The position numbers and the translations under genes are program-made. Shown here piece by piece: positions 10,474 to 31,815 of a stretch of DNA of 32,000 nt (the stretch's first letter is position 1; the number at the start of each line of letters is the position of its first letter). The notes under the pieces are model-generated. The model worked only from the letters and a program-made list of their open reading frames with translations, searched no databases and was not told where the DNA came from. This DNA comes from Nitrosopumilaceae archaeon (GTDB lineage: Archaea > Thermoproteota > Nitrososphaeria > Nitrososphaerales > Nitrosopumilaceae). The stretch lies in assembly GCA_035528495.1 (NCBI GenBank), contig DATKYM010000045.1, positions 7,652-39,651 on the forward strand, in the 5' to 3' direction.

Positions 10474-10500
10474 ACATATCCTTCAAAATATTGTATAGAA

Positions 10501-10623: not shown

Positions 10624-11521
10624 GATGTTAAAGCATTATGAATTAACTAACCTAGATCAGGTATTCCATATCTGATTTAAGCAAGTTAAAATTTTAAAAA
10701 TAAAAAATTGAATTATTGGGGGTTAGAATACCCTCTTGTTGAAAAACTAATGACTCTATAAGGAATAACTATCGAAATTTTTTACATATGGTATGGGGAA
10801 TTCTTTTTTCAAATAATGAGTTAAAACCAGTAATTATTTTAATTGTGTTTAATGAAGATCTTTTCCTTAATTTAATTGAAAAACAATTTCGTTACAAATA
10901 CAAGGAATGAAAATAATGTAAAATAAATATTAATAATTTCAAAAATTAACTCCCAATATTAAAAACAAATTTTGACATTCTAAATATATGGATTAAATTA
11001 GAGGTAAATTCTTTTCTACAAATTTTAAATCAGTTTGAACAAACATTCAAAGTTTGGCAATCCTGCGCATTTTTTCATTCTACAACGATTCCTTAACAAA
11101 TTAATTAATTAAATTTTGTAACTGATAATAAAAGATCGATATTGAAACCAATTATAATATAATAATCACTGAGATGTTAAATTTTATTTTTCTAAATTTA
11201 AAATCCTTGTCATTAAATTACTTGCCTCGCAAATACGATCATAAATAATTCATAATATCAAAAAGATATCCAAAAAAGGATGATTTAAAAACTCTTATAG
11301 TTGTTTCTTCATGATGTGAGTTTTTATAATCATGTTTAAAGTATTTTTGATTAATGGATCCAAAATACCTATTCACTTTACCATTACATGATGTCAAAAG
11401 AAAAATTTTAATTTACTTGGATATTGAATTATTGGTTTTAATCGCACTCTGATCTCTTTTCTTTAAAATAAGTCCCATTAAATTTAATTGATCATGATTA
11501 AAAACTGATTGTTCTTGATTG

Positions 11522-11668
11522 TTAGATAGTAAATTTGTCTGGACATTCTACATGTTCGTAATGGTGTTCTGAAAATTTTTCTTGAACAACATAAATTACA
11601 ATTTTGTGCAATTCTTCCCCCTTGATCTTTTTGTTGCATTTAAGACATATTTTATTTGAATTTGTCAT
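11522..11668 (-). CDS. Unlisted 48-aa micro-ORF with N-terminal CxxC
   Basis: Hand translation: MTNSNKICLKCNKKIKGEELHKIVIYVVQEKFSEHHYEHVECPDKFTI. An overlapping 51-aa ORF in another frame (11484-11639) means coding status and frame are uncertain. Confidence 0.3.
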   Translation of the reverse strand: MTNSNKICLKCNKKIKGEELHKIVIYVVQEKFSEHHYEHVECPDKFTI

Positions 11669-11805
11669 TCGTAATTGCGATCTAAAATTCTAATCTATAA
11701 GGATCTACGATTAGCTCAATTTGAGTAAAACGAACTCATGTTATACTTTTTAGTATATCAAACGCCTAAAGCAAGGCAAAAATATGGTATAAAATCACGA
11801 TAAAT

Positions 11806-13776: not shown

Positions 13777-13844
13777 TAATGTCGAAATCCTAGAGGTGGC
13801 CTTGTTTATAAAAATTATGAAGCATAGATATTTTAGAAGAAAAG

Positions 13845-13918
13845 TGCCAGGGGCGAGATTTGAACGCGCGACAGCCCGGTCTTCAGCCGAGTGCTCTCCC
13901 AGGCTGAGCTACCCTGGC
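13845..13918 (-). tRNA. tRNA-Phe: tRNA-Phe (anticodon GAA)
   Basis: Minus strand reads GCCAGGG TA GCTC AGCCTGGGA GAGC A CTCGG CTGAAGA CCGGG CTGTC GCGCG TTCAAAT CTCGC CCCTGGC A, 74 nt. Full cloverleaf with U33, purine 37 and a GTTCAAATC T-loop. One C:U mismatch in the T-stem (52:62). CCA not encoded. Confidence 0.9.
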
Positions 13919-17602: not shown

Positions 17603-18400
17603 TTAGTTTATTGTCTGTAATCTTGGATGTAATACATGGTATCCATTTTCATTGAATCTTATTGGATAGGTTTGTTCACTGTGTTTTGTTCCTCTCATTT
17701 TAATAACCTGAACTGATCGTTCCATTGTATTTGTTTTTTGAACATGATTTAAAATTACAATTCCTGATGCTTCATACCATTCTGGGGGAGTTTTTGAATC
17801 TAAATTCTCTGAAATAAAAATTGACGTGCATTTTTTTTCATCTAAGGCGTGAATCAATTTTTGAATACCTTGGCGAGCATTAAATTTATTTCCATACTGT
17901 ATGCTTAAAACCGAAAGTGAATCAACAACAAGACGTTTGGCATGAATTTTTTTAATTCCTTGCAAAATTAATTGAGTCAAATGAGTAAATGGAAAAGGCT
18001 CTGTACCATACAAAGAATCTCCTGATTCAAACGTTTCATCATTCATTTTAAATGGTCGTGCATCAACTATCAAAATTTTTTCTTCATCCATCAACTTTTC
18101 AATATTCCATCCATAACTTCGAAAGTCATTAATCAGTTCTTGTGGGCTTTGTGTTAGAGTTACAAATATTCCTGGTTCTTCAAAATCTAGTGCGCCATTA
18201 TGAAGAAATTGCATCCCAAATGTTGTTTTACCACTCCCAGATTCTCCAGATAAGACAATTGTTTTTCCTTCTTTTAATCCTCCATCTATAATCAAATCGA
18301 ATCCTGGGATTCCTGTGCGAATCTTAAATTCCGAATTACTCACAATAACAAGCAGATAATTTTGTATATAAAGAGGTGTGAGTTTATCTGATATACACAT
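17603..18400 (-). CDS. Single-domain KaiC/RecA-superfamily ATPase (ArlH/FlaH-like class)
   Basis: TGIPGFDLIIDGGLKEGKTIVLSGESGSGKTTFGMQFL (Walker A) and Walker B-type RLVVDSLS. An internal GTG at 18341-18343 preceded by a TATA box is a likely true start (246 aa). Confidence 0.85.
   Translation of the reverse strand: MCISDKLTPLYIQNYLLVIVSNSEFKIRTGIPGFDLIIDGGLKEGKTIVLSGESGSGKTTFGMQFLHNGALDFEEPGIFVTLTQSPQELINDFRSYGWNIEKLMDEEKILIVDARPFKMNDETFESGDSLYGTEPFPFTHLTQLILQGIKKIHAKRLVVDSLSVLSIQYGNKFNARQGIQKLIHALDEKKCTSIFISENLDSKTPPEWYEASGIVILNHVQKTNTMERSVQVIKMRGTKHSEQTYPIRFNENGYHVLHPRLQTIN
18365..18372 (-). promoter_or_regulatory. Candidate archaeal TATA box (TTTATATA on the minus strand) for the KaiC-like gene
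   Basis: 21 nt separate the box from the in-frame GTG at 18343, which is the spacing expected for a leaderless archaeal mRNA. The box lies inside the longest-ORF N-terminus, which has no KaiC homology. Confidence 0.35.
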
Positions 18401-18423: not shown

Positions 18424-19287
18424 CTAGAGTGGAATTGATTTAGATTTTGTCCATAACAAATCAAACAATAATTTTTTAGAATAAATCATTGCCGAAGAAT
18501 TTGTCCACATTGCAGATACATTCTCTTTTCCAGATTCAGAATTCTTCATAAAGAATAAAATCTCTTCATTGTCCTTTATGACAAAGCAAATAGAACCATC
18601 TTTAGTAGTTGGAAATTTTTTAACATTAGTCCTATCAATTTCATCGTAAACATATAGTGTTCTTTCTGAAGAGCTTGTTAGAATCTGTAAATCAATATCT
18701 GATTTATCCAAGGGCTCTAAAAAGTTAGCATGGTAAAACTTTAGAAAATCTTTCTCATTTCCAATTATTTGAAATCCTTTTTTGGTGTTTCTAATCATAT
18801 CATTTATTTTTCCATAAATTTGATTTTCTCCCTGTAACATTTGAAATTTATCTTCTTTATCAAGTTCAGGCTCATTGTGATAATTTGGTATTGTGTTCCA
18901 AAGTTTAGTAACCTCTTCTTCTTGTTTTTCTAATTTTCTAATTCGTTCTTTTTCAGTGTTGACCATTGATTTGATGGCACTGGATAATGACAATGCTGAA
19001 AATTTAATTGGATGCTGAAATGTTGCAGATACGATTCCCTTGTTTTGTAGGGTAGTTAGAAGATGATATGTCTCAGTTCTTGGAAGTTTTAAAGCTCGAC
19101 AAACCTCAGGTGCAGTTTTTGAGCCATACTTTCCTAAAAATATGTATACCTTGCATTGGTTTACAGTTAAACCAAATTTTGAAAATTGATCTTGTAGTTG
19201 ATCTATAGATTGTTTATGTTCATAAGAACTAGAATCTGGATCATTTTCAAATATCGTGGATTGGGCATTATCAGTCAATTCTTTCAC
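18424..19287 (-). CDS. TrmB-family winged-helix transcriptional regulator
   Basis: 287 aa. N-terminal FGLTVNQCKVYIFLGKYGSKTAPEVCRALKLPRTETYHLLTTLQNKGIV is the TrmB HTH, followed by a coiled-coil linker and a C-terminal effector-type domain. GTG start in the track. Confidence 0.8.
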   Translation of the reverse strand: MKELTDNAQSTIFENDPDSSSYEHKQSIDQLQDQFSKFGLTVNQCKVYIFLGKYGSKTAPEVCRALKLPRTETYHLLTTLQNKGIVSATFQHPIKFSALSLSSAIKSMVNTEKERIRKLEKQEEEVTKLWNTIPNYHNEPELDKEDKFQMLQGENQIYGKINDMIRNTKKGFQIIGNEKDFLKFYHANFLEPLDKSDIDLQILTSSSERTLYVYDEIDRTNVKKFPTTKDGSICFVIKDNEEILFFMKNSESGKENVSAMWTNSSAMIYSKKLLFDLLWTKSKSIPL

Positions 19288-19450
19288 TCCGAGTACAATC
19301 CAATATTCCTCTTTGATTTAGAGGGATCAAGTCAACTACCATTGAGTTGAATGATCGTAATGTTGCTTCTGCTTTTAAAAAAGAAGCGATTTTCAGGCCA
19401 AAAATTCTTTTTCTAGGCTTAATTTTGTTGTCTGATAAAATTATTTTCAT
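19271..19450 (-). CDS. Possible unlisted 59-aa ORF bridging the upstream gene and trmB-like gene
   Basis: Hand translation: MKIILSDNKIKPRKRIFGLKIASFLKAEATLRSFNSMVVDLIPLNQRGILDCTRSERID. Its ATG shares one base with the upstream TAA (TAATG at 19448-19452) and its end overlaps the TrmB GTG by 17 nt. Alternatively this 162-bp stretch is non-coding regulatory DNA. Confidence 0.25.
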   Translation of the reverse strand: MKIILSDNKIKPRKRIFGLKIASFLKAEATLRSFNSMVVDLIPLNQRGILDCTRSERID

Positions 19451-20034
19451 TATTCACATCCCACCGTTAAGATCGATTTGAAAGAAAATTTCTCTCGGAT
19501 AGCATCGGTTTTAATGAAGGCTAGCTCATAAGGGCCGTCATTTTGTTCATATCCAACTCCGGCTAATTCCTTTTTAATGCCTGATTTCATTAATTGTTCC
19601 AGACTGTCACGTATGTTCTTTAATCTCTCAGACTCTGCCTTCATACCTTCAAGTGATTTAAAGTATAATTCAAGCTCCCCTCTAGTTCCAATCCCATTGT
19701 AAAGATGTAATCCTTCATAATCTATCCAATTTTCTGATTTACCTTTTTTTGGTTTTCGCTTATTATCACTTTTTTTATCTGATTTCTTACTTTCTCTTTT
19801 TTTATTCTCTGATTTTTTATTATCACTTTTTTTATCTTTAGAATTTTCTGGATTTAATTTTTCTTTCAAATCAGATAATTCTTCAGAATTGTTTTGTTCA
19901 CCAACTCTAATTTTATCTCCAATTATTTTTGATTGTAAATTTATTTTCTCATCTAAATCTTTTATTCTTTCATCCAGAGACTCTTTTAGTTCTATAATTG
20001 AATTAAAACGTGATATTTTATTATTCATAATCAA
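19450..20034 (-). CDS. Hypothetical protein with central poly-basic low-complexity tract
   Basis: 194 aa. Tract KDKKSDNKKSENKKRESKKSDKKSDNKRKPKKGK flanked by helical regions. The track starts at TTG 20034, and ATG at 20028 is also possible (2 nt after the upstream TGA). Confidence 0.65.
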   Translation of the reverse strand: MIMNNKISRFNSIIELKESLDERIKDLDEKINLQSKIIGDKIRVGEQNNSEELSDLKEKLNPENSKDKKSDNKKSENKKRESKKSDKKSDNKRKPKKGKSENWIDYEGLHLYNGIGTRGELELYFKSLEGMKAESERLKNIRDSLEQLMKSGIKKELAGVGYEQNDGPYELAFIKTDAIREKFSFKSILTVGCE

Positions 20035-20591
20035 GATACCTCATTTATTCTTGTACTGTTTGGATTAGGTTGATTTACAATATTTTGATCAGAACTATTT
20101 GAAGAATTTTGATTAATAGAATTTTCGGAGGAGTCAGAAAGGTTACTATCATCATTTATTTTTTGGATTTTTTCTATTTTTCTGGTTACAGCCTTTAAGA
20201 ATGTGATATTTTTATTCTGAATGATTTTTTCGTTTTTGCATAATTCTATAATTGGTGTCATTGCATTTTTTAGAATTTGAGCAATGTTTTTAGTAGAGAA
20301 TTCATCTAATCTTTTTTGTATTACCTTACCGTTGGATTTCTTTATTACAATATCTAATGATGGTGTTAAAGTTATTTTGGTATTATCATCTTCATTGAAT
20401 ACTTTGGGCGGTAAATCTACAGAGAATCCTAAAAATTCAGTTATAATTTTTAAAGAGTTATACAGCTCGTCAATTACATTACCCTTTTCACTTTCTAACT
20501 CATAAATTTGTACAGATTCATCTACAAGTAAATCAGTATTCTTTAAAACCTCATCAAATTCTTTGATTTCAGCCTCATAACTTGGTTCCAT
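20031..20591 (-). CDS. Hypothetical protein (186 aa) with Ser/Asn-rich C-terminal tail
   Basis: ORF-track entry, tightly coupled to the next gene. No family recognised. Confidence 0.65.
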   Translation of the reverse strand: MEPSYEAEIKEFDEVLKNTDLLVDESVQIYELESEKGNVIDELYNSLKIITEFLGFSVDLPPKVFNEDDNTKITLTPSLDIVIKKSNGKVIQKRLDEFSTKNIAQILKNAMTPIIELCKNEKIIQNKNITFLKAVTRKIEKIQKINDDSNLSDSSENSINQNSSNSSDQNIVNQPNPNSTRINEVS

Positions 20592-20654: not shown

Positions 20655-23111
20655 TCAAATCACACGCACGATTCCGATGTAGTTCGTATGGAGAAAAACC
20701 TGGCCTTCTGAATTATACCCGTCTAAAAATACATACATTCGATATCTCCCCTCTGGAACTAATTCACTTGAAACATTTCCAGGCTGTACACGGGGTCTAT
20801 CAAATTCAACTGCGACAGTATTGCCTACGGATATTACTGAACTATCTTGAGTTGGTCCTAAAGGTGTACCATCTGCAGTTATGATGAACGCCGCATAGGA
20901 TGCTGCAGAATTTTCATCTTCAAAAATTACCCTGCTCTGATATTTTATCCAATTGTCCGCAGGACCTGGATTAAATATTCCAATCACTCCTATGTCAGAA
21001 TTATCATATCCCCCATAACCTGCTATTCCTTTATCGGGGAATGGAATCTGAAGAAAACTACTTCCCAATCCAGACACCACATCGGTATCATCTATCACCA
21101 TTTTAAAGTCTAAATTGCCTATACTTTTTGGGATATTTGTCATTTGGATCATCAAGCGTTCTCCTGGGTCTATAACTCGTTGTTGAGTAGTAATTACAGT
21201 AAAATTAAACTGACCCCAAATATCACTAATGGGAGAAGAATACTCTGCAAAGTCACTAGAGTACGGGAATGAATAACTCAAAGTTTGTGTAATTATTTTG
21301 TCTGAGGCGCCAAGATCATTTCCAAATTCATCTACGATACTAATATCAAAATCTACAAGATGACTACTAGTACCATAATTTGTATTAAACAAATCCTCCA
21401 CTTCTTGTTGACCACTCTCATTCAAATCGTAATTATCCCAGTGAATTATATCATCAATCATACCATGAAAGCCATTAGTCAGAGGAGATATTGTAAATGC
21501 GCCAATGTGTATATTACCTGAGAGAACAATAGTTCCACTACCCGGGTTAGAGTCTTGATCTTGTAACACTCCATCCACATACAACTTGCAATCATTATCA
21601 TCGGGCATTACTGCAGCAAAATGGTGCCACGTATCATCCCTGTAATCTACTGCACTAGTACAAGTGGCAATGCTGGATGTAAAACTGGCATCTAATTGAA
21701 AAACCAAATTGCCACTTGGGTTTAGATAAATTTCAAAGCTATCAGTAATACCGCTGTTCTCTCCATAAAAAATTGTCTGAAAATCATTTGGACCTGTACT
21801 TTCTGCATTAAACCATCCTGCAGTGGTAGTAGGACTGGCATCAAGATCATTGTCATCATTTATACCAATCATTGCATATTGATTTCCTGAAAAATGATAT
21901 GCTCCGGCACCTTGATGTCCAGTTGGAATCCATAATGGTCTCTGAGAGCCAGAAGCCAAAGTCATTACCGTGTTTGTAGTAGTATCTAATGGAGAGTTTA
22001 GGTCACTTTCAAAATGATATGACATGGTTTCAGTTGTGTTTCCCGTATGTGTCAAAGATGGAGGCATTGGACTGCTGATGTATCTAAGAGTCGCATTCCA
22101 TTTTCCGGCAGGTATGTTGCTTGTCACATTTCCATCTGTATTAGAATAAAAAATTGGATCAATGAAGCTAAAATCAATAATTTCACCCACATTGTCTTCG
22201 GGAATAGATGCCCACATTTGACGTTGACCTAATGCATCAAAATTTTCTTTATGAAAAAATAAGATGTTATCAGGTGCAGAAGATGAGGTCAGAAATTTAC
22301 TTTCTAAAGAACTTCCGCTTTCCTCAGCAAATTCTACTACCTTGACAGATACTTCTTTAGTTATAGTATTTCCTGGTGCTCCGTTTAGGATACTTGCTTC
22401 AAACTGAATTTTATCTCCGTCATTTCCTGAAATTTTAAAGGTCCACTCAAAAATTGCAGAGTTGCCTTTTTCTAGTACAGGGTGAGGATCAGGCATGGAA
22501 CTCTCTAGCTGAGCTGTTGCGCCTAACGACGTTAGATTTAGAATTGGTTGAATATTTGTATAAATTGTGTTTTGGGTAGAATTATTTGTGACAGACAATA
22601 AAATAGTAGTTTTAAAATTGGTTGGGACTTCTTCAGGCAAGGCAAACAATTGTAAATTTAATGGATCAGTTGAAGCATTTACTGAAAATTCTTTTGTTAT
22701 TCCCCTATCTGTTACTAGTTTCATCTTATAGCTTTCCGTAGATAAAGCTGTAAATGGTAAAAATTGTAAAATATCCTCAACCATATTTCCTGGTGCCACA
22801 GTTTGGTTTAAATCAAATCTATAAACCTGGTCAACTCCAGTTACATTTTCTATCCATAACCTAGAAAAAGAAATTGGAATGTCTCCTGAATTATAAATAT
22901 CTAAATTAATTTTATTGTTTACTATTGTCAATCTAGAAATATCAAAGGACTCCTTTTTTCGATTTTCTCGTTCTTGTTCTGCTGCAATAACATTTTCTGA
23001 AAAATCTTCAAATAAATTCATGCTAGATGTCAGATAACTTGCCGCAGTAATTATTGCAATAAGAAAAAATACAGCTCCCACTACAGTTGACAGAGCTCTT
23101 CTTTGTTTCAT
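20655..23111 (-). CDS. Giant (818-aa) archaeal type IV pilin-like protein with internal LamG/concanavalin-A-like lectin domain
   Basis: N-terminus MKQRRALSTVVGAVFFLIAIITAASYL is a class III (prepilin-type) signal. Aa ~365-575 (nt ~21387-22019) carry Laminin_G_3-type landmarks: DDTWHHFAAVM, CKLYVDGVL, GNIHIGAF, FHGMIDDIIHWDNYDL. Many N-x-S/T sequons. ATGA overlap with the upstream small pilin gene. Confidence 0.8.
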   Translation of the reverse strand: MKQRRALSTVVGAVFFLIAIITAASYLTSSMNLFEDFSENVIAAEQERENRKKESFDISRLTIVNNKINLDIYNSGDIPISFSRLWIENVTGVDQVYRFDLNQTVAPGNMVEDILQFLPFTALSTESYKMKLVTDRGITKEFSVNASTDPLNLQLFALPEEVPTNFKTTILLSVTNNSTQNTIYTNIQPILNLTSLGATAQLESSMPDPHPVLEKGNSAIFEWTFKISGNDGDKIQFEASILNGAPGNTITKEVSVKVVEFAEESGSSLESKFLTSSSAPDNILFFHKENFDALGQRQMWASIPEDNVGEIIDFSFIDPIFYSNTDGNVTSNIPAGKWNATLRYISSPMPPSLTHTGNTTETMSYHFESDLNSPLDTTTNTVMTLASGSQRPLWIPTGHQGAGAYHFSGNQYAMIGINDDNDLDASPTTTAGWFNAESTGPNDFQTIFYGENSGITDSFEIYLNPSGNLVFQLDASFTSSIATCTSAVDYRDDTWHHFAAVMPDDNDCKLYVDGVLQDQDSNPGSGTIVLSGNIHIGAFTISPLTNGFHGMIDDIIHWDNYDLNESGQQEVEDLFNTNYGTSSHLVDFDISIVDEFGNDLGASDKIITQTLSYSFPYSSDFAEYSSPISDIWGQFNFTVITTQQRVIDPGERLMIQMTNIPKSIGNLDFKMVIDDTDVVSGLGSSFLQIPFPDKGIAGYGGYDNSDIGVIGIFNPGPADNWIKYQSRVIFEDENSAASYAAFIITADGTPLGPTQDSSVISVGNTVAVEFDRPRVQPGNVSSELVPEGRYRMYVFLDGYNSEGQVFLHTNYIGIVRVI

Positions 23112-23557
23112 GGCCCCATAACATACGTTTGATAGATAGATCCTTTTTCCGTTGTGACTGCAATTCGAATAGGATCAGTAGTTGTCCAATTATAAGTAAT
23201 TTCAGTGGAAAAATAATCATTACTTGCAATCCCGCCGTTTGTTATTAACAAATTAGTTTTATCTATAGAATTATCAAGAGTTATTTTTGTTACATTAAGT
23301 CCTATAGTTCCAACGTTGCTTGTTGTTACATTGATAAATTTAGTAGGATTGTTTCCAAACCAAACATTTTCTACAACTAAAAATTCATTTAATTTATTCA
23401 CCCCATCTGAATATGCCGTATTAATTTCCTGTTGCTCATTTGAAAATATGCTATTTGACCACGCAGTCATCATACTACCCATGACTGCGACTGCTGAAAG
23501 CAAAATCCCAGTAGTGACTACAGTAGCTAACGCTCTGCGTGTAGTGTGTTTAGGCAT
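23108..23557 (-). CDS. Archaeal type IV pilin-like protein (149 aa)
   Basis: MPKHTTRRALATVVTTGILLSAVAVMG is a class III signal with the same RRAL[AS]TVV core as the 818-aa protein, followed by a beta-rich body ending in VTTEKGS. Confidence 0.75.
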   Translation of the reverse strand: MPKHTTRRALATVVTTGILLSAVAVMGSMMTAWSNSIFSNEQQEINTAYSDGVNKLNEFLVVENVWFGNNPTKFINVTTSNVGTIGLNVTKITLDNSIDKTNLLITNGGIASNDYFSTEITYNWTTTDPIRIAVTTEKGSIYQTYVMGP

Positions 23558-23656: not shown

Positions 23657-24469
23657 TCAACGTATTGAGAGCGAATTTTTATCCACATTCTCTCTGAACA
23701 AGCCTATTTGATTTGATAATCCATATGCAAACATGGTATAGGTCCATAAGAATAAAATTTCAACGATGTGTCCTGGATAGTAAATATTTTGAAGAGACAA
23801 GAATAGTACACTATTATCGCCAATTATCTGAGTAATTATTCCTAAACATAAAAGAGATATCATAAAATTTACACCTCCTTTAAAAAATAAAATAACGCCA
23901 ATCAAGGCAGGTATTAAAATAAGCGAATCTAAAATTGGATATGCCAGTAAGACTAGAAAATTCTCGTTAATTAAATCCGATTTAGAATCTAAAATCATCA
24001 TTAATGAGGGAATTAAAAGAGAGATTGAAACTGTTGACATCCCAACTAACATCTTTTTTGAAATTTGCTTTACAAATGGTCTTAAATAAAAAATAAGAAA
24101 TGCAAAAAATAGTTGATATCCAGTTATATAGAAAAAATCATCGGCATACTTCCAGGCATCAATTCCCAACATAACATTGTAAAACACATCAACAGTTTCT
24201 GCACAAAACCAATATGCCGAGAACAACATAAACAAAATCCATGCTTTTCCATGATTCCCCTTTAGACCATATTTTGAGACCATAAAAAGTGAAAAGATAG
24301 TTACAATGCTAGAAAGAACAATTGAAATTCCATTTGAAACATTTTCTGCTATTTCTGGACTCAAAAAATTTGCCAATAAAATTAATGCGGTTATTCCCAA
24401 CAAGGTAAAAAGAAGATATTCCTGAACATTAAATCCTTGATAGAATAATTGCAAAGGATTACCTCGCAA
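23657..24469 (-). CDS. Polytopic integral membrane protein (about 7-8 TM helices), unknown family
   Basis: 270 aa, almost entirely hydrophobic helices. Its start overlaps the stop of the AAA+ gene by 11 nt. Confidence 0.7.
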   Translation of the reverse strand: MRGNPLQLFYQGFNVQEYLLFTLLGITALILLANFLSPEIAENVSNGISIVLSSIVTIFSLFMVSKYGLKGNHGKAWILFMLFSAYWFCAETVDVFYNVMLGIDAWKYADDFFYITGYQLFFAFLIFYLRPFVKQISKKMLVGMSTVSISLLIPSLMMILDSKSDLINENFLVLLAYPILDSLILIPALIGVILFFKGGVNFMISLLCLGIITQIIGDNSVLFLSLQNIYYPGHIVEILFLWTYTMFAYGLSNQIGLFRENVDKNSLSIR

Positions 24470-25745
24470 TCTGTTCCAGGAAATTTTGGATTGGTTGAGA
24501 TGACATCATGTTTCCAAGATTTTTCTTTATAGAATCAACAATCGTAACATGTGCTGTTCCGTAAATATCTTTGAGAATTCTATTTAGGAATTCTGGCTCA
24601 TCATAACAATCAGCTAGAGTTCTGTTATAATCCGCCATTAATTTCTCTTTTACTTTATTTAGATCTGGTTTTCCAATTTCCAACAATGATTTTTCGATCG
24701 CTATTATGATGAGTTCCTTTGGATCATTACTTGTGGTAGTTACACCCCAATCAACTGAGGTAATGATTTTTCTTACCTCATCTTGAATTTCATAATCATC
24801 ACTAGTCATGGCAACTAGAGTCTCATTTCCGGCATCTAATGGCGATGCACCATCGGCAATTATTCTTGCCCAATTTGCCAGATCACCTACTGAAGGACCG
24901 TAAGGTAAATCGCCGTTTTTGTATTCTTGGCGTAATTTAGCTGCTACATGAACTATACTTGTTGCAGTATCTCTGGGAACTCCAGTACGTTCTAAAAGAA
25001 GGTTTATTTCTTTTTCATCTATATGATTGTCCACACTCATGTAGTCAAAGTTTAGCCAAACGCTCATTCTTCTTCTAAATGCAGCATTCAGTGGTTTAGT
25101 TCCTGTAAATTCAGAAGAGAAAGGATTCATACTGATAATCATGTATGCATCTTTGTGTCGATTAATTAGTTCATTATCTTTTTCATTTAATACCATATGA
25201 CCCCTAGCGTCCAAAATTGGGTTTAGTTTTGTGGCAACATCTTGTTTCATCATATTTGCCTCATCTAAATACAGTATTCCACCATATCTACACCAAGAAG
25301 TAATAATACCATCAATCCAATTTTCTTTTCCTAATCCTATGTAACGACCAAACAGATCATATGCGGATGTTTGTAAACCACAATTAATTTCCCACAATGG
25401 AAGCTGAGTTAGTTCAGCTACAAGGTAAACTATGTGCGTTTTACCTGTACCACTGGGCCCAATACATGCACATTGTTTAAAATATCCTAATGCTCTAACA
25501 ATTCTTTCTACATAATTCTGCCCATTATCATAAAATGGAGGAGTGTCTTGTGGAATCAACTCTTGCATATCTTCAGAGAAATTAAAATTATCTGGATTCA
25601 CATATTTTTTAATATCATAGGTGTGTAACTTCTTTGAATCTACTTTTTTATTTTTGGAAAAATTTATTTTTAAACTAAAATCATCATTATAAACTCTTGA
25701 TGTTTTAAGATTTTTTACATTACCCTCAGATGTGCTTGAAATCAT
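24459..25745 (-). CDS. MoxR-class AAA+ ATPase (AAA_5; CobS/NorQ/CbbQ-like) with N- and C-terminal extensions
   Basis: 428 aa. Walker A GPSGTGKT (aa 96-103), Walker B ILYLDEAN (aa 157-164), Arg-rich NAAFRRRM. Has a ~90-aa N-terminal leader and a ~100-aa helical C-terminal extension beyond the AAA+ core. Confidence 0.85.
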   Translation of the reverse strand: MISSTSEGNVKNLKTSRVYNDDFSLKINFSKNKKVDSKKLHTYDIKKYVNPDNFNFSEDMQELIPQDTPPFYDNGQNYVERIVRALGYFKQCACIGPSGTGKTHIVYLVAELTQLPLWEINCGLQTSAYDLFGRYIGLGKENWIDGIITSWCRYGGILYLDEANMMKQDVATKLNPILDARGHMVLNEKDNELINRHKDAYMIISMNPFSSEFTGTKPLNAAFRRRMSVWLNFDYMSVDNHIDEKEINLLLERTGVPRDTATSIVHVAAKLRQEYKNGDLPYGPSVGDLANWARIIADGASPLDAGNETLVAMTSDDYEIQDEVRKIITSVDWGVTTTSNDPKELIIIAIEKSLLEIGKPDLNKVKEKLMADYNRTLADCYDEPEFLNRILKDIYGTAHVTIVDSIKKNLGNMMSSQPIQNFLEQIAR

Positions 25746-25836
25746 AGAATTAATTTAAAATAAATATGTTAAACAAGAGAGATGTATTGTTATACTACAG
25801 ACAGGCTGTTAATTATGAATAATTAAGATATTAGTC
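25746..25836. promoter_or_regulatory. 91-bp divergent promoter hinge between the two arms of the filament locus
   Basis: Contains AT-rich TATA-like elements in both orientations: TTTATTTTAAA on the minus strand near 25757-25768, and TTAATTAT near 25809-25816, ~21-28 nt before the ATG at 25837. Assignment is by position only. Confidence 0.3.
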
Positions 25837-26373
25837 ATGAATCATGAGGTAGATGTATCTAATTTAATGTTCAATAAAACTGCCGAAAAAACCAGTTTTA
25901 AAAAATATGACATTAACGTTGATCTTGAAGAAGAATCCAGTGATGGTGAAAAAACGATTTTAAAGTATTCTCTAGATTTAACTTCAAATCCAAAAAATTC
26001 TGTCATCAATATAAGCGGAAATACAACATTATCTGGTGAAAAATCAGAGATTGAGGAATTTTTAAAACAAGAAAACGAAAAAACACCTGAAGTTGTATCT
26101 TTAATTTACCAGGAATTATTTCCATTAATGTATATAATTTCAAAGAATATGAAAATTCCATCACCATCTCATACGTTGTCACAAAATAATATTAAACAAT
26201 TCGATGAACAGAATAAAGATATAGATTCCAATGATGATAAACATGAATCAGTTGAACCTAAAAAAGAAAACGAAGAAAATCAAAATGATCAATTAAAAGA
26301 AGGACAATCAGAAATTGTAAAGGATACCACATCCATTGAAACAGAAGGGCAGAATAATGTTTCTGAAACTTGA
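25837..26373 (+). CDS. Hypothetical acidic protein (178 aa): ~115-aa folded-looking N-domain plus Asp/Glu/Asn-rich tail
   Basis: ORF-track entry, first gene of the plus arm, 9 nt upstream of the VWA gene. Confidence 0.6.
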   Translation: MNHEVDVSNLMFNKTAEKTSFKKYDINVDLEEESSDGEKTILKYSLDLTSNPKNSVINISGNTTLSGEKSEIEEFLKQENEKTPEVVSLIYQELFPLMYIISKNMKIPSPSHTLSQNNIKQFDEQNKDIDSNDDKHESVEPKKENEENQNDQLKEGQSEIVKDTTSIETEGQNNVSET

Positions 26374-26382
26374 TGATTTAAA

Positions 26383-27942
26383 TTGCAACAGACATTTCTT
26401 GACATAATCTATAAAATTTTCTATGAAACTGCCCAAAGAGATTTCAAAGATATTAGATTATTATTATCTGAAAAATTTTCTTTCCCTTCTATTAAATTTG
26501 AACCCATTATTGAAGTAAAAATCCCAATTCCAAAAAATACTGAATATGGGATAGTTTATGCAGGTTATTTATTTAAAAATTCTCAAGAAGGTTTAACAAC
26601 TGTGTGGAGTTTTTTTTTATCGACTGTTTATCATTTAGCAGCTCATGTTGCAGTCTCAAATTATTCTGTTTATAATGGTTGGATGAAAGATAAAACACCA
26701 AGATTAGCTTGGAAAGTTATTAATTTTATTGAAGATGATGCAGTTGAAAGGTATCTTTTTTCTACCAATCAGGATGTGTGGATCAACCTTTCAAAAATTA
26801 AAAATGAATATGCTAAACATAACAAATTTAATAAAAATCAATCTAAATTTGCTCTTACTTTAGGCCAAAAAACCAAAAACTCTATTAAAAATGAAATGAG
26901 TCAAGTTACTCTACAACAATTTGATAATGCAAGTAAAAATAATCAAATTCATTGGGCCTCAGAATTATACAAAAATAGATTTTTGTTTTCAGAAGACACT
27001 CCATTTTATTATGAACAAAATAATTACAATCAATCATTAATTTTAAAACACAATAAAATAAAGATATACCCCATTGGAAAATTTGCAAGTAGTGTTAAAA
27101 AATTAAATTTTTTATATCTTGAAGAAAAAGAAAGAATTCAAAATATAATACATAAACTTCGAAGAGATTTAAATGGTTTGAATTTTGAAGATATCGTTCT
27201 TCCAAATGAAGATATTTTCGAATATTTTAAACTCAAAGAGAAAAATAAAAAAATTCTTAAAAAAATTAGGGAGCAAATCAGAAGTGTTCTAAACAATTCC
27301 GAAGATCCAAATACAAACATGTACGGTGAAATAGATATGGAATTAGCAATTCAAGCAATAGCAAGTAATTCTCAAAATTATGCGGAGGTATTTAATAAAC
27401 TAGAAGAGCAGAGAATTGAAGAAACCTGGGGAATTCTTATTGATAATAGTGCAAGTTTGAAGTTGAGATTTGACCAAGTAAAAGATTTCATGCTTTGTCT
27501 TGCAGAAGCATCAGATGAATTAACTGGGCCTGCGGGGTCATGGGGTCTTTATAGTTATGATCAAAAATTTTCTATTTTAAAGGATCATAAAGGAAAATAC
27601 AATCAAGATTCTAAAGCAAGGATTGGAGGTTTGCATAGCGGGGGATTATCATATACATCTGATGCAATTTTATTAGCAGGGAGGATGATGGCCAAAACTC
27701 CTGCCGATCTAAAACATCTTTTTGTGTTTACAGATGATTTTCCTACCGGAGTATGGAATCAGGACCGCAAGCTGGCCCTTGCTGTAAAAGAAGTTGAAGG
27801 GATGGGAATAGAGACCATAGGAGTTGGTTTATCCCCTGGAATTTCAAAATATTTTAAAGATTCCTGTTGGGGAACTAATATTCGTGAATTAGTAGATGCC
27901 TTTGTGAAAGTTTATAGAATGAAATCAATGAAATCACTATAA
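26383..27942 (+). CDS. von Willebrand factor A (VWA) domain protein with intact MIDAS (CobT/NorD/CbbO-like partner of MoxR ATPases)
   Basis: 519 aa. C-terminal VWA with DNSAS (aa 354-358, nt 27442-27456), a downstream Thr in SYTSD and Asp in FVFTDD. No signal peptide or TM segment. The only nearby in-frame start is TTG at 26383. Confidence 0.8.
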   Translation: MQQTFLDIIYKIFYETAQRDFKDIRLLLSEKFSFPSIKFEPIIEVKIPIPKNTEYGIVYAGYLFKNSQEGLTTVWSFFLSTVYHLAAHVAVSNYSVYNGWMKDKTPRLAWKVINFIEDDAVERYLFSTNQDVWINLSKIKNEYAKHNKFNKNQSKFALTLGQKTKNSIKNEMSQVTLQQFDNASKNNQIHWASELYKNRFLFSEDTPFYYEQNNYNQSLILKHNKIKIYPIGKFASSVKKLNFLYLEEKERIQNIIHKLRRDLNGLNFEDIVLPNEDIFEYFKLKEKNKKILKKIREQIRSVLNNSEDPNTNMYGEIDMELAIQAIASNSQNYAEVFNKLEEQRIEETWGILIDNSASLKLRFDQVKDFMLCLAEASDELTGPAGSWGLYSYDQKFSILKDHKGKYNQDSKARIGGLHSGGLSYTSDAILLAGRMMAKTPADLKHLFVFTDDFPTGVWNQDRKLALAVKEVEGMGIETIGVGLSPGISKYFKDSCWGTNIRELVDAFVKVYRMKSMKSL

Positions 27943-28105
27943 ATTTGAAGATTTTGGATTAAATCATAAAAATATTATTATAAAATTCGGTTATTTCCAA
28001 TATTTTACCATTAAACTCCTATCTATCTCCGTGACCCTGAGTTTGTCTGTTCAAAAATATTACACATCAGATCCTATAACCTCATACTGTCATTTTATTT
28101 TAATA

Positions 28106-28774
28106 ATGAAAAACCACGTTTTCACAAAAAAGAGAAAAGGTATCAGTACAGTACTTACCACTGTAATTATCCTGGTAGCTTCGGTAGTTCTTGGTTCTGG
28201 TGTAGTGTTGTATGGAACAAGTCTGTTCCAAACAGTTGCCCAAGAAGAGAGTATCCAAGTACAGGGGATTCAGGTTTGGGTAAATGCAACTGATCCATTA
28301 GGTGATGCGTGGGGAGCAGCAGGTGTAAGAAATAACGGTGACAAGAACTTATCTGTAGACACCATCCACATCAAAGGTGTAACAATACCATATACAAACT
28401 GGTATTGGGATGCAGATCAAACAAGAGTTACCACCGATAACTGGCAAGCGAGCTTTGTTCATGAAGGTACTGCAGGTGTAGGAACTTTAATGAAAAACTC
28501 ACTAGAAGTGACAACTAATTGTTCCGCTTCAACAGTTACTACTTTGGAAATTGATTTTGATGGTGGTGTATCAAATCCAAATGATTCATTGGCCACTCTC
28601 TGTCTACAACAAGGTTCAGGTCCAGTAGGACTTAAACCAGGAGAGAGAGCAATTATCTACTTCCAAGTACCGCAAGAGAAAATCACAACACTTGATGCAG
28701 GAGCTGCAACAACGTTGAAGATATTTGCAGGAGAAGCAGGCGCTCCCCTAAGTACAATCATCCAAAACCCATAG
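28106..28774 (+). CDS. Archaeal type IV pilin-like protein (222 aa), candidate major subunit
   Basis: MKNHVFTKKRKG/ISTVLTTVIILVASVVLGSGVVLYG is a class III signal (basic stretch, Gly, then a hydrophobic helix). The track ORF from 28031 adds 25 implausible residues. Own 163-bp upstream region and a hairpin plus T-tract downstream. Confidence 0.8.
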   Translation: MKNHVFTKKRKGISTVLTTVIILVASVVLGSGVVLYGTSLFQTVAQEESIQVQGIQVWVNATDPLGDAWGAAGVRNNGDKNLSVDTIHIKGVTIPYTNWYWDADQTRVTTDNWQASFVHEGTAGVGTLMKNSLEVTTNCSASTVTTLEIDFDGGVSNPNDSLATLCLQQGSGPVGLKPGERAIIYFQVPQEKITTLDAGAATTLKIFAGEAGAPLSTIIQNP

Positions 28775-28825: not shown

Positions 28826-30376
28826 TTGAAATCTGTAAATGAAAATCAAATTGAACTAGGAGGTATTCTAAATCATGACCTGTTAGATGAAAGCACAATC
28901 AATAAAGTTTCAAATCAATTCAAAATAGTAAAAGAATATTCATTAAATGCACCATTTAGTTATGCAAAAATTTTATGGGATGAGAAAAATTCATATTTTC
29001 AGTATTTTGTGGATGAAATTAAATTAAATTTTGATGAAGAAAGAATTTACAAAGATTTGTACACCTTTGTAGAGGAGAGTTTAGATTCTCTTGAGACCAC
29101 AAAAGAGCAAAAATTTGATGTTCATTTAAACGACGTAATTAAAAAACATGAAATTTTTTTCACCTCAAATCCTATAGCGAGCATGGAAAAGGTCAAATAT
29201 TTTTTAAAAAGAGACATTATGGGTTACGGTGAAATTGACGCTTTAATGCATGACCCAAATATTGAAGATATTAGTTGTAGTGGCCCCAAAAATCCACTAT
29301 ATGTTTGGCATAGACAATATGATAGCTTGTCTTCAAATATCTCCTTTGAGTCACATCAAAAGCTAAATTCATTTATTACTCGTATTGTTTTCAAAGCAGG
29401 AAAACACGTCAGTACTGCCCATCCTATTTCTGACCTGGCAATTACTGGAAATCATAGAATCTCAGTATTGTATCAAAAAGAGATTACTCCAAAAGGGACT
29501 AGTTTCACAATCAGAAAATTCAAAGAGGATCCTTATTCAATAATTGATCTTATTGGATTTGGGACGATTGATATTGAAACTGCAGCATATCTCTGGATGT
29601 TGATTCAAGCCAAGATGTCAATAATGATAATTGGTTCTACAGGTAGTGGAAAAACAACTGTACTTAATTCAATTGCCGGTTTGGTAAGTGAAAATGATAA
29701 ATTATTTTCAGTAGAAGATGTAGCTGAAATTAATATACCACATGATAATTGGTTTTCACTTATTTCAAGATCAGGTTATGGATCAAATGATGAAGGTGAA
29801 ATTGGATTATACGAATTGATCAAATCTGGTGTTAGACATAGGCCAGACTACATTATTGTTGGTGAAATTAGGGGTTCTGAAGCTTATGTAATGTTTCAAG
29901 CAATGGCTACAGGTCATGGAGGCCTAAGCACTATGCATGCAGATAGTTTGGATTCTGCAAGTAAAAGATTACAACAAAAACCAATGAGTATACCGCCAGC
30001 ATATCTTTCTTTGATGAATTGTGCCCTGGTAATTAAAAGGGTAAAAGACAAGGTAACTGGGCAAAGTATGAGACGTGCAATATCTATTGAAGAAATATCT
30101 AGTAGTTCTGCTCCAAATTCAGTAACTACGTGGAACCCTAAATCCGATTATTTTGATCATTCTTTTAGTTCAAGTAAAAATCTTAAAAAAATTTCTGAAC
30201 AAACAGGTGATGAATTTAATGAGGTTTTAAAAGAACATCATAAAAGAACAAAAATCTTGAAATGGATGTCATCTAACAACATCCGAGAACATAAAAAAGT
30301 CACAGAAATGATTAGGAAATATTATAATGATCCAAAATCTGTCTTAAAAAAAATCAATTACGGGGATGAAGAATAA
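28826..30376 (+). CDS. Type IV filament assembly ATPase (archaeal PilB/FlaI-ArlI, VirB11 superfamily)
   Basis: 516 aa. Walker A IIGSTGSGKTTVLN, Walker B/Asp box PDYIIVGEIRGSEA, His box GHGGLSTMHA. TTG start at 28826, with no in-frame ATG for ~120 codons. Confidence 0.9.
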   Translation: MKSVNENQIELGGILNHDLLDESTINKVSNQFKIVKEYSLNAPFSYAKILWDEKNSYFQYFVDEIKLNFDEERIYKDLYTFVEESLDSLETTKEQKFDVHLNDVIKKHEIFFTSNPIASMEKVKYFLKRDIMGYGEIDALMHDPNIEDISCSGPKNPLYVWHRQYDSLSSNISFESHQKLNSFITRIVFKAGKHVSTAHPISDLAITGNHRISVLYQKEITPKGTSFTIRKFKEDPYSIIDLIGFGTIDIETAAYLWMLIQAKMSIMIIGSTGSGKTTVLNSIAGLVSENDKLFSVEDVAEINIPHDNWFSLISRSGYGSNDEGEIGLYELIKSGVRHRPDYIIVGEIRGSEAYVMFQAMATGHGGLSTMHADSLDSASKRLQQKPMSIPPAYLSLMNCALVIKRVKDKVTGQSMRRAISIEEISSSSAPNSVTTWNPKSDYFDHSFSSSKNLKKISEQTGDEFNEVLKEHHKRTKILKWMSSNNIREHKKVTEMIRKYYNDPKSVLKKINYGDEE

Positions 30377-31815
30377 TGTTATCAATAAATAAAATAAATG
30401 AAAAAAGTTTTGAGCATAAACAAGGGAACAAAATCAATGGGGAACTACCATATTTTATCACGATTGTGACCTTACTTAGCAGCGCTGGCCTTGGACCATA
30501 CTTTATGCTTCAGAGAGTAAAATCTATGGAACTCTTACCTACAATAAAAAATGAAACAGTAAAAATGCTAAAACGCATTGATCTGTTAGGCGTGGATCCT
30601 TTAGAGGTAATGCGCCAAGTAAGGACTCATTCTAGTTCAAAAGCCTTGGGAGAATTTTTTGACGGATATGTTTCAACCATAGAGAGTGGAGGAAATATTG
30701 TAAATTATCTAAAAAGTAAAATGAAAACAGTTTACGACAGGCATGCTGAATCCCAAAAGCAATCAGTGGTCAAGTTGGGTGCTCTTGTTGAGGCATACAT
30801 GACCATTCAAGTTGTTTTACTGGCAGTTTACATTATTGGGGCTGCTGTAATTTCAGATCCATTCAATGCATCTGAAACAGGAGTAAGTGCTGAATTGATA
30901 TTTTTAATTGTAACACCTGCAGTATCTGTCTTGTTTCTTTTTGCAGCTAATGCTAATTCTGTTTCAAAAAGTCCAGAGATAGATAAGAAAAAAATAATAA
31001 TTTTTGCTGCGCCTCCATTAATAGTAAGTGGAATTGTAATTGGTTTGAATTTATTTCCTTATCCTGTAATGAATCCCTATTTGCTAGGCGGAGCATTAAT
31101 TGCAGCCTCAATTGTACCGACGATTTATTTCAAAAAAGTGTATGCAATTACAATGGCATCAGAAGATTCTACTCCTAAAATACTTCGTACTATATCAGAA
31201 GCACGAAAGACCGGAATGAGTCCTGAAGGAAGTGTTATTCATGCATGTAAAAGAAAAGAATATGGTGCATTTGATCCAATCGCAAATGGGATAGCAAATA
31301 GGATAGAGTGGGGGGTTGATTTTAAAACTATTTTTCATTATCTACAAAAAGAAATTCAAACCTTTAATGTTTTGATTAGTTTCAATATTTTGTTTGAGTT
31401 AATTTCTGCAGGTGGGGGGAATTCAGAGACGCTTGATTCCTTAACTGAAACCAGTGAAAGACTACATGTAATCCAAAAAGAAAAACGTGAATTGCTTATG
31501 CCTTATTTGTTTGTTGGATTTATTTTAATGGGAACCACAGGATTTACAACTCTTTTAGTGATTGATTCCTTTGCAGACATCGAACAACAAAGTCGAAATT
31601 TATCGGAGATTGAGGAAGTGGTTGTATCAACCTCGTTAGGGTTGTATCCATTTATTGTGCTTATTCAGTCCTGGACTGCAGGTTTATTCCTTGGTAAGGT
31701 AATCAAGGGAGCATTTTCAGGAGGTTTCCTGTATTCTATAATACTCGTTATTATGACATTGATAGGAATAACCTTGGTTCAATTTTCAATAATAGATGTG
31801 AATTCATTATTCTAG
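30376..31815 (+). CDS. Type IV filament platform membrane protein (PilC/FlaJ-ArlJ/TadC family)
   Basis: 479 aa. Two repeats of a cytoplasmic helical domain plus TM helices, the T2SS-F-like layout. Its ATG shares one base with the ATPase stop (TAATG at 30374-30378). Confidence 0.85.
   Translation: MLSINKINEKSFEHKQGNKINGELPYFITIVTLLSSAGLGPYFMLQRVKSMELLPTIKNETVKMLKRIDLLGVDPLEVMRQVRTHSSSKALGEFFDGYVSTIESGGNIVNYLKSKMKTVYDRHAESQKQSVVKLGALVEAYMTIQVVLLAVYIIGAAVISDPFNASETGVSAELIFLIVTPAVSVLFLFAANANSVSKSPEIDKKKIIIFAAPPLIVSGIVIGLNLFPYPVMNPYLLGGALIAASIVPTIYFKKVYAITMASEDSTPKILRTISEARKTGMSPEGSVIHACKRKEYGAFDPIANGIANRIEWGVDFKTIFHYLQKEIQTFNVLISFNILFELISAGGGNSETLDSLTETSERLHVIQKEKRELLMPYLFVGFILMGTTGFTTLLVIDSFADIEQQSRNLSEIEEVVVSTSLGLYPFIVLIQSWTAGLFLGKVIKGAFSGGFLYSIILVIMTLIGITLVQFSIIDVNSLF

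Follow-up and report, generated by a model that had tools for sequence, protein, structure and literature searches.

A MoxR-class ATPase and its VWA-MIDAS partner at a thaumarchaeal type IV pilus locus: a probable cytoplasmic accessory module and its lineage-specific variant in Nitrosopumilaceae

What does a MoxR-class ATPase do at the centre of an archaeal type IV pilus (T4P) locus? The question is raised by a 32,000-nucleotide stretch of DNA from a Nitrosopumilaceae archaeon (contig DATKYM010000045.1, positions 7,652 to 39,651, assembly GCA_035528495.1), referred to here as the window, which is AT-rich (GC ~32%) and carries such a locus. [quoted passage not shown] A sequence-only reading of this DNA had located the four ORFs, whose coordinates hold, and had proposed that the ATPase and the VWA protein act as a pair on the filament machinery itself. 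We consider it probable, with some reserve, that the two proteins form a dedicated MoxR-VWA remodelling machine, a cytoplasmic accessory of a clade 4A T4P locus that works with the SecB-like, acidic-tailed protein.

The closest relatives of the window are Nitrosopumilus and Nitrosopumilaceae metagenome-assembled genomes; a 100%-identical copy of the VWA protein occurs in JGI metagenomes, and the copy of a Nitrosopumilus sp. (locus L009) is 87% identical. Loci were sampled around increasingly distant VWA homologues and then as 79 loci of GTDB species representatives. Neighbouring genes were scored with iterated hidden Markov models made from the window proteins, and the denominators given below are assessable loci. 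Group A (VWA 69–87% identical to that of the window) comprises Nitrosopumilus, Nitrosomaritimum and other Nitrosopumilaceae. Group B (31–41%) comprises Nitrosotalea, including the cultured Ca. Nitrosotalea devanaterra (L025), Nitrosotenuis, Nitrosomirales and other Nitrosopumilaceae, and VWA identity inside it falls as low as 26%. Group C (28–34%) consists of orphan VWA paralogues, such as that of Ca. Nitrosopumilus salarius BD31 beside aEF-2, and group D (24–34%) of ~34 species of Bathyarchaeia.

The ATPase belongs to the CbbQ/NorQ subfamily of MoxR-class AAA+ proteins. Its gene (24459–25745, minus strand) encodes 428 residues in which Pfam recognizes an AAA_5 core (25065–25463; residues 95–227; 74 bits against a cut-off of 22) and a CbbQ_C lid (24756–25010; residues 246–330; 51.5 bits against a cut-off of 20.6). 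Walker A (GPSGTGKT, 96–103) and Walker B (ILYLDEAN, 157–164) are intact, which together with the Pfam matches upholds the assignment as an AAA_5-type ATPase. Sensor-1 (N207, in MNP) and the arginine finger (cluster RRR, 224–226) were both assigned by position and motif. The best PDB relatives are the AAA domains of midasin, CbbQ (E 9e-25), NorQ (E 1.5e-19) and CobS, and by analogy the protein is predicted to assemble into a hexameric ring with ATPase activity. Extra domains had been suspected at both ends. The C-terminal one (residues ~335–428) is genuine, and the N-terminal one is ruled out, as residues 1–80 (25506–25745) match every family member, including those of group B and Bathyarchaeia.

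The partner protein (26383–27942, plus strand; 519 aa) is a NorD-type VWA/MIDAS adaptor in three parts: an N-terminal domain (26383–27291), a conserved linker of low model confidence that holds the GEIDMELAIQAIAS motif (27292–27411) and a VWA domain (27412–27939). The window protein itself has no Pfam match. Among the 23 sequences of the family alignment, which extends to Bathyarchaeia, 18 match VWA_2, 16 match VWA and 12 match CobT_C, and the best PDB matches of the family profile are NorD (E 1.2e-5) and CobT. An AlphaFold2 (AF2) model (predicted local distance difference test, pLDDT, 81.6; predicted TM-score, pTM, 0.78) has as its top Foldseek matches the VWA domain of NorD (E 3e-9), from the 2026 cryo-electron microscopy structures of NorQD, and the MIDAS domain of MDN1/Rea1 (E 1e-7; 8ql1, 6qt8). 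These Pfam, profile and fold matches confirm the identity of the MoxR AAA+/VWA-MIDAS pair. The MIDAS comprises D354, S356, S358, S423 and D451. At position 423, which aligns with the MIDAS Thr of NorD, Thaumarchaeota have S and Bathyarchaeia T; the other four residues are invariant. The DxSxS...T...D site is thus as complete as had been described, with the correction that its T is S423 in the window. No hydrophobic segment is present in either protein of the pair, in agreement with the view that neither has a transmembrane (TM) helix.

The N-domains of MoxR-associated VWA partners are mutually unrelated and set target specificity (PMC9976466), and the family-specific N-domain found here agrees with that view. 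Residues 1 to ~300 gave 77 hits only among 1.84 billion representatives, all of them 510–590-aa members of the same VWA family; the region first described as unrecognised is, after this exhaustive search, known from its own family only. Conservation is highest at residues 5–127, which form a β-sheet and two helices, one carrying H84-x3-H88 and the next E117-D118, and these His, Glu and Asp residues are invariant. Residues 83–92 (26629–26658) and 116–121 (26728–26745) have a zincin-like layout in which the position of the catalytic Glu is always L, M, F or V, and H84, H88 and E117-D118 may form a non-catalytic metal site. The protein is not a NorD in the strict sense: its N-domain is unrelated to that of NorD, and the window and related loci carry no nor genes.

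The two arms of the locus are those of a pilus system. On the plus arm, the VWA gene is followed by a pilin with an UpsA-like N-terminus (28031–28774, probable start near 28106), a PilB/FlaI-like ATPase (28826–30376; T2SSE match, 1e-37) and a PilC/TadC-like platform protein (30376–31815; T2SSF match, 4.5e-14). The minus arm holds a small pilin-like protein (23108–23557) and a Laminin_G_3-bearing, pilin-like adhesin of 818 aa (20655–23111), both assigned by Pfam/NCBIfam and an N-terminal hydrophobic helix. More distally on the same strand lie the genes of four cytoplasmic proteins: o186 (20031–20591), o194 (19450–20034), a TrmB-family regulator (18424–19287) and a KaiC-like ATPase (17603–18400; PF06745, E 1.5e-57). 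The pilin ORF opens 25 codons before its probable start M26, from which a typical archaeal class III signal peptide, MKNHVFTKKRKG/ISTVL..., can be read; the orthologue called in L001 has 221 aa. The KaiC-like gene is kept in groups A and B. Standing at the end of the minus arm, it recalls ArlH of archaella, itself KaiC-like, as well as the KaiC-type T4P regulators described by Makarova et al. (PMC4858521).

Conservation of this arrangement ties the pair to the pilus genes. The pilin-PilB-PilC order of the plus arm and the pilin-like and adhesin genes of the minus arm are kept in groups A and B. Group A loci are arranged as in the window, with the AAA+ gene in 9/9, the acidic gene in 9/9 and PilB downstream in 7/7. 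The corresponding counts in group B are 20/21, 21/21 and 12/13; there the acidic homologue lies on the minus strand, and a short AAA+ gene, the VWA gene, pilin, PilB and PilC all lie on the plus strand. The AAA+ and VWA genes are neighbours, divergent in the window and on the same strand, adjacent or overlapping, in group B and Bathyarchaeia. Taken over Nitrososphaerota, PilB is found 2.3–3.5 kb downstream in 19 of 20 loci and the AAA+ gene in 29 of 30, at VWA identities down to ~31% and across Nitrosopumilales, Nitrosotalea, Nitrosotenuis and Nitrosomirales. Chance does not account for the place of the pair within the pilus locus, of which it is a fixed component in Nitrososphaerota.

The distant locus L008 has AAA+, VWA, pilin, PilB3 and PilC genes in the same order together with a SecB-like gene. 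It comes from a 2.38-Mb long-read contig (ENA ERZ26167216) with several frameshift-split genes. A close homologue of its VWA protein (P0095) is labelled Thermodesulfobacteriota by NCBI, yet the pilus genes are of archaeal type, a conflict that could reflect mis-binning or horizontal transfer. In Nitrosotalea (L025, L028, L029, L035), the arm with the LamG adhesin and small pilin lies on the plus strand, inverted with respect to the rest of group B, which means that the locus has been rearranged more than once. The orphan paralogues of group C have neither the AAA+ gene (0/6) nor the acidic gene (0/6) nor PilB (0/8). In Ca. Nitrosopumilus salarius BD31 (L048:10001-11572), for example, a VWA gene with the signature YHVGVH...VEDAKV and a complete MIDAS directly follows aEF-2, and no AAA+ gene or pilus gene occurs within 10 kb. 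A 425-aa KaiC-like protein is encoded next to it on the opposite strand in L044 and L048, the L048 copy having a Zn-ribbon-like motif and a TM segment.

This core association has been in the literature since 2016 and is no discovery of the present work. The sequence-only reading had known of no such accessory module in archaeal pili; it was in fact reported by comparative genomics, as the arCOG00441 (GvpN/MoxR-like ATPase)/arCOG02900 (vWFA) pair, which showed a strong link to the clade-4A pilus loci of Thaumarchaeota (Makarova, Koonin and Albers 2016, PMC4858521). The abstract of that paper counts the pair among predicted T4P regulators or modulators, and the text discusses it under 'Regulation of T4P expression', with the VWA protein placed in the same arCOG as ArnB. 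In its Table S4, Nitrosopumilus AR1 and AR2 show arCOG05517 (minus strand), the MoxR-like ATPase, the vWFA protein, a pilin and a FlaI-like ATPase, and TrmB, arCOG11968 and arCOG11534 on the other arm (PMC4858521). This order is the group B arrangement: the uncharacterized arCOG05517 takes the place of the acidic protein, and arCOG11968 and arCOG11534 are the positional equivalents of o194 and o186. Judged by synteny and protein size, the window genes probably belong to these arCOGs, and the pair is the same module. No mention of arCOG00441/arCOG02900 beyond Makarova et al. was found in a literature search. Their paper differs from the present account in that it does not describe the inversion, the NitrOD5-like extension or the 8-TM gene of the window, gives no fold for arCOG05517, has no pilus-less module from Bathyarchaeia and contains no experimental work. 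New here, among other things, is the window's lineage-specific variant: the inversion, the fusion of MoxR to a NitrOD5-like domain and the 8-TM partner.

Could the pair nonetheless be an orphan homologue of NorQD, CbbQO or CobST whose client has nothing to do with the locus? Its domains are indeed homologous to those of NorQ, CbbQ and CobS on the one side and of NorD and CobT on the other. CbbQ/CbbO (Rubisco activase) and CobS/CobT (cobaltochelatase) share the MoxR plus VWA architecture, with CbbQ a top PDB match and CobT_C recognized in 12/23 family members. Unlike these systems, however, the window has no Rubisco or cobalamin genes, and its VWA protein has another N-domain and is shorter (519 aa). 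No nor, cbb or cob genes were found near the pair in the window or in related Nitrososphaerota loci, the VWA N-domain is unrelated to anything beyond its own family, and the order with the pilus genes is kept in 19/20 Nitrososphaerota loci. Chance placement, which had been offered as an alternative from the outset, is therefore very improbable.

The loci of Bathyarchaeia show which neighbours the pair keeps outside Thaumarchaeota. The AAA+ gene is present in 31/31 group D loci, an o194-like gene in 32/34, an o186-like gene in 32/34 and a TrmB-like gene in 27/34; the acidic, SecB-like gene is found in two of 34 only (L079, L082). PilB, PilC and pilins are absent within 10 kb of the pair (PilB 0/32), the range covered by the search, so that pilus genes of Bathyarchaeia could sit elsewhere in the genome. 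The only neighbours common to Thaumarchaeota and Bathyarchaeia are o194, o186 and TrmB. Both o194 and o186 are soluble proteins, and neither has Pfam or PDB relatives at permissive thresholds. A cross-phylum core without PilB or PilC makes o194, o186, the TrmB-family regulator and, in Thaumarchaeota, the SecB-like protein with its cargo more likely as immediate clients than PilB or PilC, and favours a regulatory or remodelling module acting with these partners. The pair is most likely a cytoplasmic remodelling or regulatory module.

The wider gene order in Bathyarchaeia runs from a Hel308-like helicase through IscS/IscU and the pair to a 501-aa polytopic membrane protein, with dTDP-sugar genes flanking. 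Upstream of the pair (L006:5571-8801 and ~22 other loci) lie genes for an IscS-like protein (Aminotran_5), an IscU-like protein (NifU_N), a second aminotransferase and an 89-aa protein. The IscS/IscU/aminotransferase block occurs in 21–23 of 26–32 Bathyarchaeia loci and is absent in Thaumarchaeota. It could mark a link to metal or Fe-S clusters. It could also be inherited gene order, since a median VWA identity of 70% puts the Bathyarchaeia loci close enough to one another for that. The 89-aa gene before the AAA+ gene was considered as a diverged SecB-like protein and ruled out (hhalign probability 0.4%).

The same core raises the alternative that the pair is a transcription switch and nothing more. 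It would then remodel a TrmB-family complex with o194 and o186 as co-factors, in a manner resembling ArnB, and would never contact pilins or the pilus machinery; pili would be one regulon of several, and in Bathyarchaeia the genes nearby are surface-glycan genes. That o194, o186 and TrmB alone are common to both phyla speaks for it, as do the Bathyarchaeia loci devoid of PilB, PilC and pilins and flanked by the polytopic membrane protein and dTDP-sugar genes, and the placing of the VWA protein in ArnB's arCOG by Makarova et al. (PMC4858521). In Thaumarchaeota, however, the pair stands directly before pilin-PilB-PilC and beside the SecB-like gene, while TrmB, o194 and o186 lie 4–8 kb off on the other arm, and a SecB-like partner suggests the handling of polypeptide clients. 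The comparison with ArnA/ArnB, the archaellum repressors of Sulfolobus, cuts both ways. ArnB is likewise a vWA protein that regulates a type IV filament in a TACK archaeon, but it works with an FHA/Zn-ribbon partner and kinases rather than a MoxR ATPase and is never inside T4P loci (PMC4858521). The window VWA protein, in contrast, is inside a T4P locus and is paired with MoxR. Its VWA domain has its nearest matches in NorD, CobT and Rea1, the listed matches do not include ArnB, and the window ORFs that were scanned gave no FHA (ArnA-like) partner. We regard a pure transcription switch as possible but rather doubtful.

The third conserved partner of the pair, added by the present analysis, is the acidic protein. 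Its gene (25837–26373, plus strand; 178 aa) precedes the VWA gene by 9 nt and is separated from the divergent AAA+ gene by 91 bp, all as first described. It is the orthologue of the divergent 175–180-aa gene of group B (E 1e-23 to 1e-28), and homologues occur in 30/30 assessable Thaumarchaeota loci. The isoelectric point is 4.5, and the tail has 18 D+E against 7 K+R. The AF2 model, built on a shallow alignment (at least 60% identity), shows a 111-residue domain (25837–26169; pLDDT 72–87) made up of four antiparallel strands and two helices, one short and one long, and after it a disordered acidic tail (26170–26370). The top 22 Foldseek matches of the domain in the PDB are all SecB or SecB-like (E 1.6e-3 to 5e-2, TM-scores 0.40–0.48). 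The fold is thus SecB-like with moderate confidence, not proven. The predicted topology, with a four-stranded antiparallel sheet, a long helix and an acidic, flexible C-terminus, matches that of SecB from E. coli and H. influenzae and of the SecB-like chaperone Rv1957 from M. tuberculosis (TAC system). The protein differs from these in its archaeal, cytoplasmic context with a MoxR/VWA pair, and it has no Pfam or NCBIfam match and hence no SecB sequence match. After the variable tail stands a C-terminal motif, compared in the homologues of L003, L005, L018, L027, L031, L036 and L076: [NT]VSS[VILN] in most of group B, AVSSE in L076 and NVSET in the window (26340–26370). This terminal motif may be a docking peptide.

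In SecB, the tail docks on SecA. A chaperone system is conceivable here in which the SecB-like protein keeps prepilins or the 818-aa LamG adhesin insertion-competent and the MoxR-VWA machine loads or releases these substrates, the MIDAS gripping the acidic tail. The predicted fold and disordered acidic tail speak for such a system, MIDAS sites bind acidic ligands (PMC9976466), and the SecB-like gene tracks pilus association, being present in 30/30 Thaumarchaeota loci and in L008 versus 2/34 Bathyarchaeia. Yet the two Bathyarchaeia loci that have the gene show no pilus genes, the SecB-like fold is moderately supported only, and the chaperone-pilin contact is hypothetical. We also know of no need of archaeal prepilins for a SecB-type chaperone. 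This arrangement is improbable.

The fourth gene tells another story. TM270 (23657–24469, minus strand) encodes a 270-aa membrane protein with ~8 hydrophobic helices. It had been placed on an equal footing with the other three in a four-gene module, and for those three conservation bears this out; TM270 is present in 9/9 group A loci versus 0/26 in group B, and it is absent from group C (0/9) and group D (0/34). It is a lineage-specific add-on, and as a general membrane partner it is ruled out by this restriction to group A. The AAA+ and TM270 genes are tightly coupled with either start codon, although the reported 11-nt overlap turns into a 4-nt gap with the in-frame TTG at 24454, at which the orthologues start and which is probably correct. 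All homologues are stand-alone proteins of ~270 aa. No Pfam relative was found in 17 members scanned and no PDB relative in a profile search. Invariant polar residues include H73, E91, D111, K139, D181, N201, D218 and H234, and paralogues (~39% identity) lie in unrelated gene contexts. Most orthologues (P0131, P0156, P0175, P0201, P0206 and P0208) have a Cys-rich, Zn-ribbon-like end (CPACGKxCxGH/CNC) that is missing from the window protein (23657–23700) and from P0121. By size and TM count alone, the protein could correspond to arCOG10526 of Makarova Table S4 (an 8-TM '...histidine kinase' of ~265 aa).

The distribution of TM270 bears on the proposal that the pair directly activates, metal-loads or remodels PilB/PilC or drives pilin maturation via the 8-TM protein. 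In its favour, the pair tightly adjoins pilin-PilB-PilC in Thaumarchaeota pilus loci, MoxR/VWA pairs of known function work on membrane complexes and load metals, as NorQD does, the invariant HxxxH...ED of the VWA N-domain is a candidate metal site, and gene spacing indicates that AAA+ and TM270 are translationally coupled. But a protein confined to group A, missing from 26/26 group B and all Bathyarchaeia loci, cannot be a general route to pilin maturation, and related loci L001 and L003 encode a separate prepilin peptidase (Peptidase_A24/Arc_PepC_II). No cofactor-requiring feature was identified in PilB or PilC, and the orthologous pair of Bathyarchaeia has neither gene nearby (PilB 0/32). 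The proposal came from the sequence-only reading; its maturation route is set aside, no test result points to PilB/PilC as a direct client, and we judge it unlikely overall.

Compared with group B, the arrangement in the window is derived: the acidic and AAA+ genes have been inverted together, the ATPase is longer by ~90 residues at its C-terminus, and TM270 is an insertion. The divergent, AT-rich spacer of 91 bp between the acidic and AAA+ genes (25746–25836) lies in the breakpoint region of this lineage-specific inversion. The C-terminal 94 residues of the ATPase (24462–24743) are confined to group A, the AAA+ proteins of group B being short (~335 aa). A 222-aa REC protein, encoded ~8 kb downstream in those group A loci that are long enough, has a C-terminal domain homologous to them (E 1e-16 to 1e-18); the equivalent position is past the end of the window. 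For both domains the top Pfam match is NitrOD5 (PF11537), best in 6/7 isolated domains. NitrOD5 is an output domain of thaumarchaeal response regulators, of a Death-domain-like class, whose tabulated architectures are stand-alone and REC-NitrOD5 only, with no MoxR ATPase fusion (Galperin et al. 2018, PMC5847659). The window thus resembles REC-NitrOD5 response regulators in that its ATPase C-terminus and the REC C-domain of the locus are mutually homologous, and differs in that the domain is fused to a MoxR ATPase and scores below the gathering threshold. The REC-NitrOD5 regulator is a probable two-component input to the ATPase in group A, and the class of NitrOD5 in PMC5847659 suggests to us homotypic NitrOD5-NitrOD5 docking.

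Several observations weigh against a dedicated remodelling machine at the pilus locus. The absence of PilB, PilC and pilins within 10 kb of the orthologous pair in Bathyarchaeia leaves room for a pilus link that is indirect or peculiar to Nitrososphaerota, and the Nitrosopumilaceae VWA paralogues L042-L051 have neither an AAA+ gene nor pilus neighbours. The moderate diversity of the Bathyarchaeia loci, at a median VWA identity of 70%, makes the conservation of gene order there weigh less than the number of loci implies; what carries information is that o194, o186 and TrmB alone recur in the Thaumarchaeota loci. For the SecB-like assignment, the model is moderate (two of five models; pLDDT 61 overall, 72–87 in the domain) and the E-values are marginal. 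NitrOD5 scores of 15–21 bits, although they cover nearly the whole profile, do not reach the gathering score of 27, and the domain is therefore named NitrOD5-like only. The VWA model, a monomer, does not resolve a pore-inserting finger, for which the conserved segments 304–319 and 332–343 are candidates at pLDDT below 50. Finally, a literature search found no experimental work on a MoxR-VWA pilus module.

How would such a remodelling machine work? The closest template is NorQ/NorD, which inserts iron into nitric oxide reductase. In NorQD, a single VWA adaptor is seated on the MoxR hexamer and reaches into its pore with a finger. Acidic residues of the target are bound by the MIDAS, a second hold comes from the N-domain, and ATP-driven rotation stretches the linker, remodelling the target (PMC13036017, PMC9976466). 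The sequence features that this mode demands are all present in the window pair except a resolved finger: a CbbQ/NorQ-subfamily ATPase and a VWA partner whose C-terminal MIDAS domain has that of NorD as its best PDB match in sequence and fold, with a conserved motif before the VWA domain, an N-terminal domain and a flexible linker. The window differs from NorQD in its lack of nor genes, its unrelated N-domain, the unresolved finger and its extra partners (the SecB-like protein, o194 and o186), and no metal-insertion target is evident at the locus. Rea1/Midasin offers a second likeness, in the structure of its MIDAS domain and in its AAA domains, the best sequence matches of the ATPase. There the MIDAS grips an acidic residue of a small ubiquitin-like (UBL) ligand domain (Ytm1, Rsa4, NLE1), which the AAA+ ring removes, and the window pair may by analogy do the same. 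In the window, however, ATPase and MIDAS are separate polypeptides, no UBL ligand was found, and the adjacent small protein is SecB-like. By analogy with NorQD, CbbQO and Rea1, a hexameric ATPase ring would hold one VWA adaptor, whose MIDAS metal ion and N-domain would grip an acidic determinant of a cytoplasmic client that is part of the pilus system or controls it. ATP hydrolysis would twist or stretch the adaptor, the client would be remodelled and pilus production or assembly competence would be switched. The stoichiometry of ring and adaptor, the binding of an acidic ligand by the MIDAS, the client and the regulatory outcome are all drawn from these analogies.

In Nitrosopumilaceae, this machine would have been rewired by the inversion of the SecB-like and AAA+ genes, the gain of the NitrOD5-like domain and a new 8-TM protein co-transcribed with the ATPase. 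Carried further, these changes could amount to a signal-gated switch for an adhesive archaeal pilus, in which a phosphorylated REC-NitrOD5 regulator docks by homotypic contact on the NitrOD5-tagged MoxR ring, while the MIDAS adaptor and the SecB-like holdase remodel a pilus client. The five-gene core of MoxR, VWA, o194, o186 and TrmB, which is common to Bathyarchaeia, would be ancestral. As a whole this elaboration is speculative and rather unlikely. If true, a type IV filament would for the first time be the client of a MoxR/VWA system, and a MoxR ATPase would for the first time be under direct two-component control.

Elsewhere in the window, a 262-aa protein (9455–10243) has an adenylate/guanylate cyclase catalytic domain (E 1e-13). 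It is followed by a ~1.5-kb stretch (10244–11800; GC 26%) without an ORF of at least 90 aa, and ~2 kb past this stretch lies tRNA-Phe(GAA) (13844–13918). An integrated element near the tRNA gene (10.2–16 kb) was considered and rejected: att-like repeats were not found, and the genes there are small housekeeping genes of ordinary kinds.

Few microbes of ocean and soil are as abundant as ammonia-oxidising archaea, and the control of their surface attachment is almost unstudied. MoxR/VWA pairs are widespread, and their known clients are few: Rubisco, nitric oxide reductase, chelatases and the pre-60S ribosomal particle. The pilus association itself will not surprise a specialist. The field of candidate clients becomes sharper through the SecB-like fold and the Bathyarchaeia core, and candidate partners are narrowed to the SecB-like acidic protein, o194, o186, TrmB and the REC-NitrOD5 regulator. 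Ca. Nitrosotalea devanaterra (L025) is a cultured carrier of the ancestral arrangement, and which client a conserved AAA+ machine serves in archaea of global abundance becomes a testable question. If the pair does act on the type IV pilus system, it would bring MoxR/VWA machines a new class of client and give research on archaeal pili a concrete regulatory handle.

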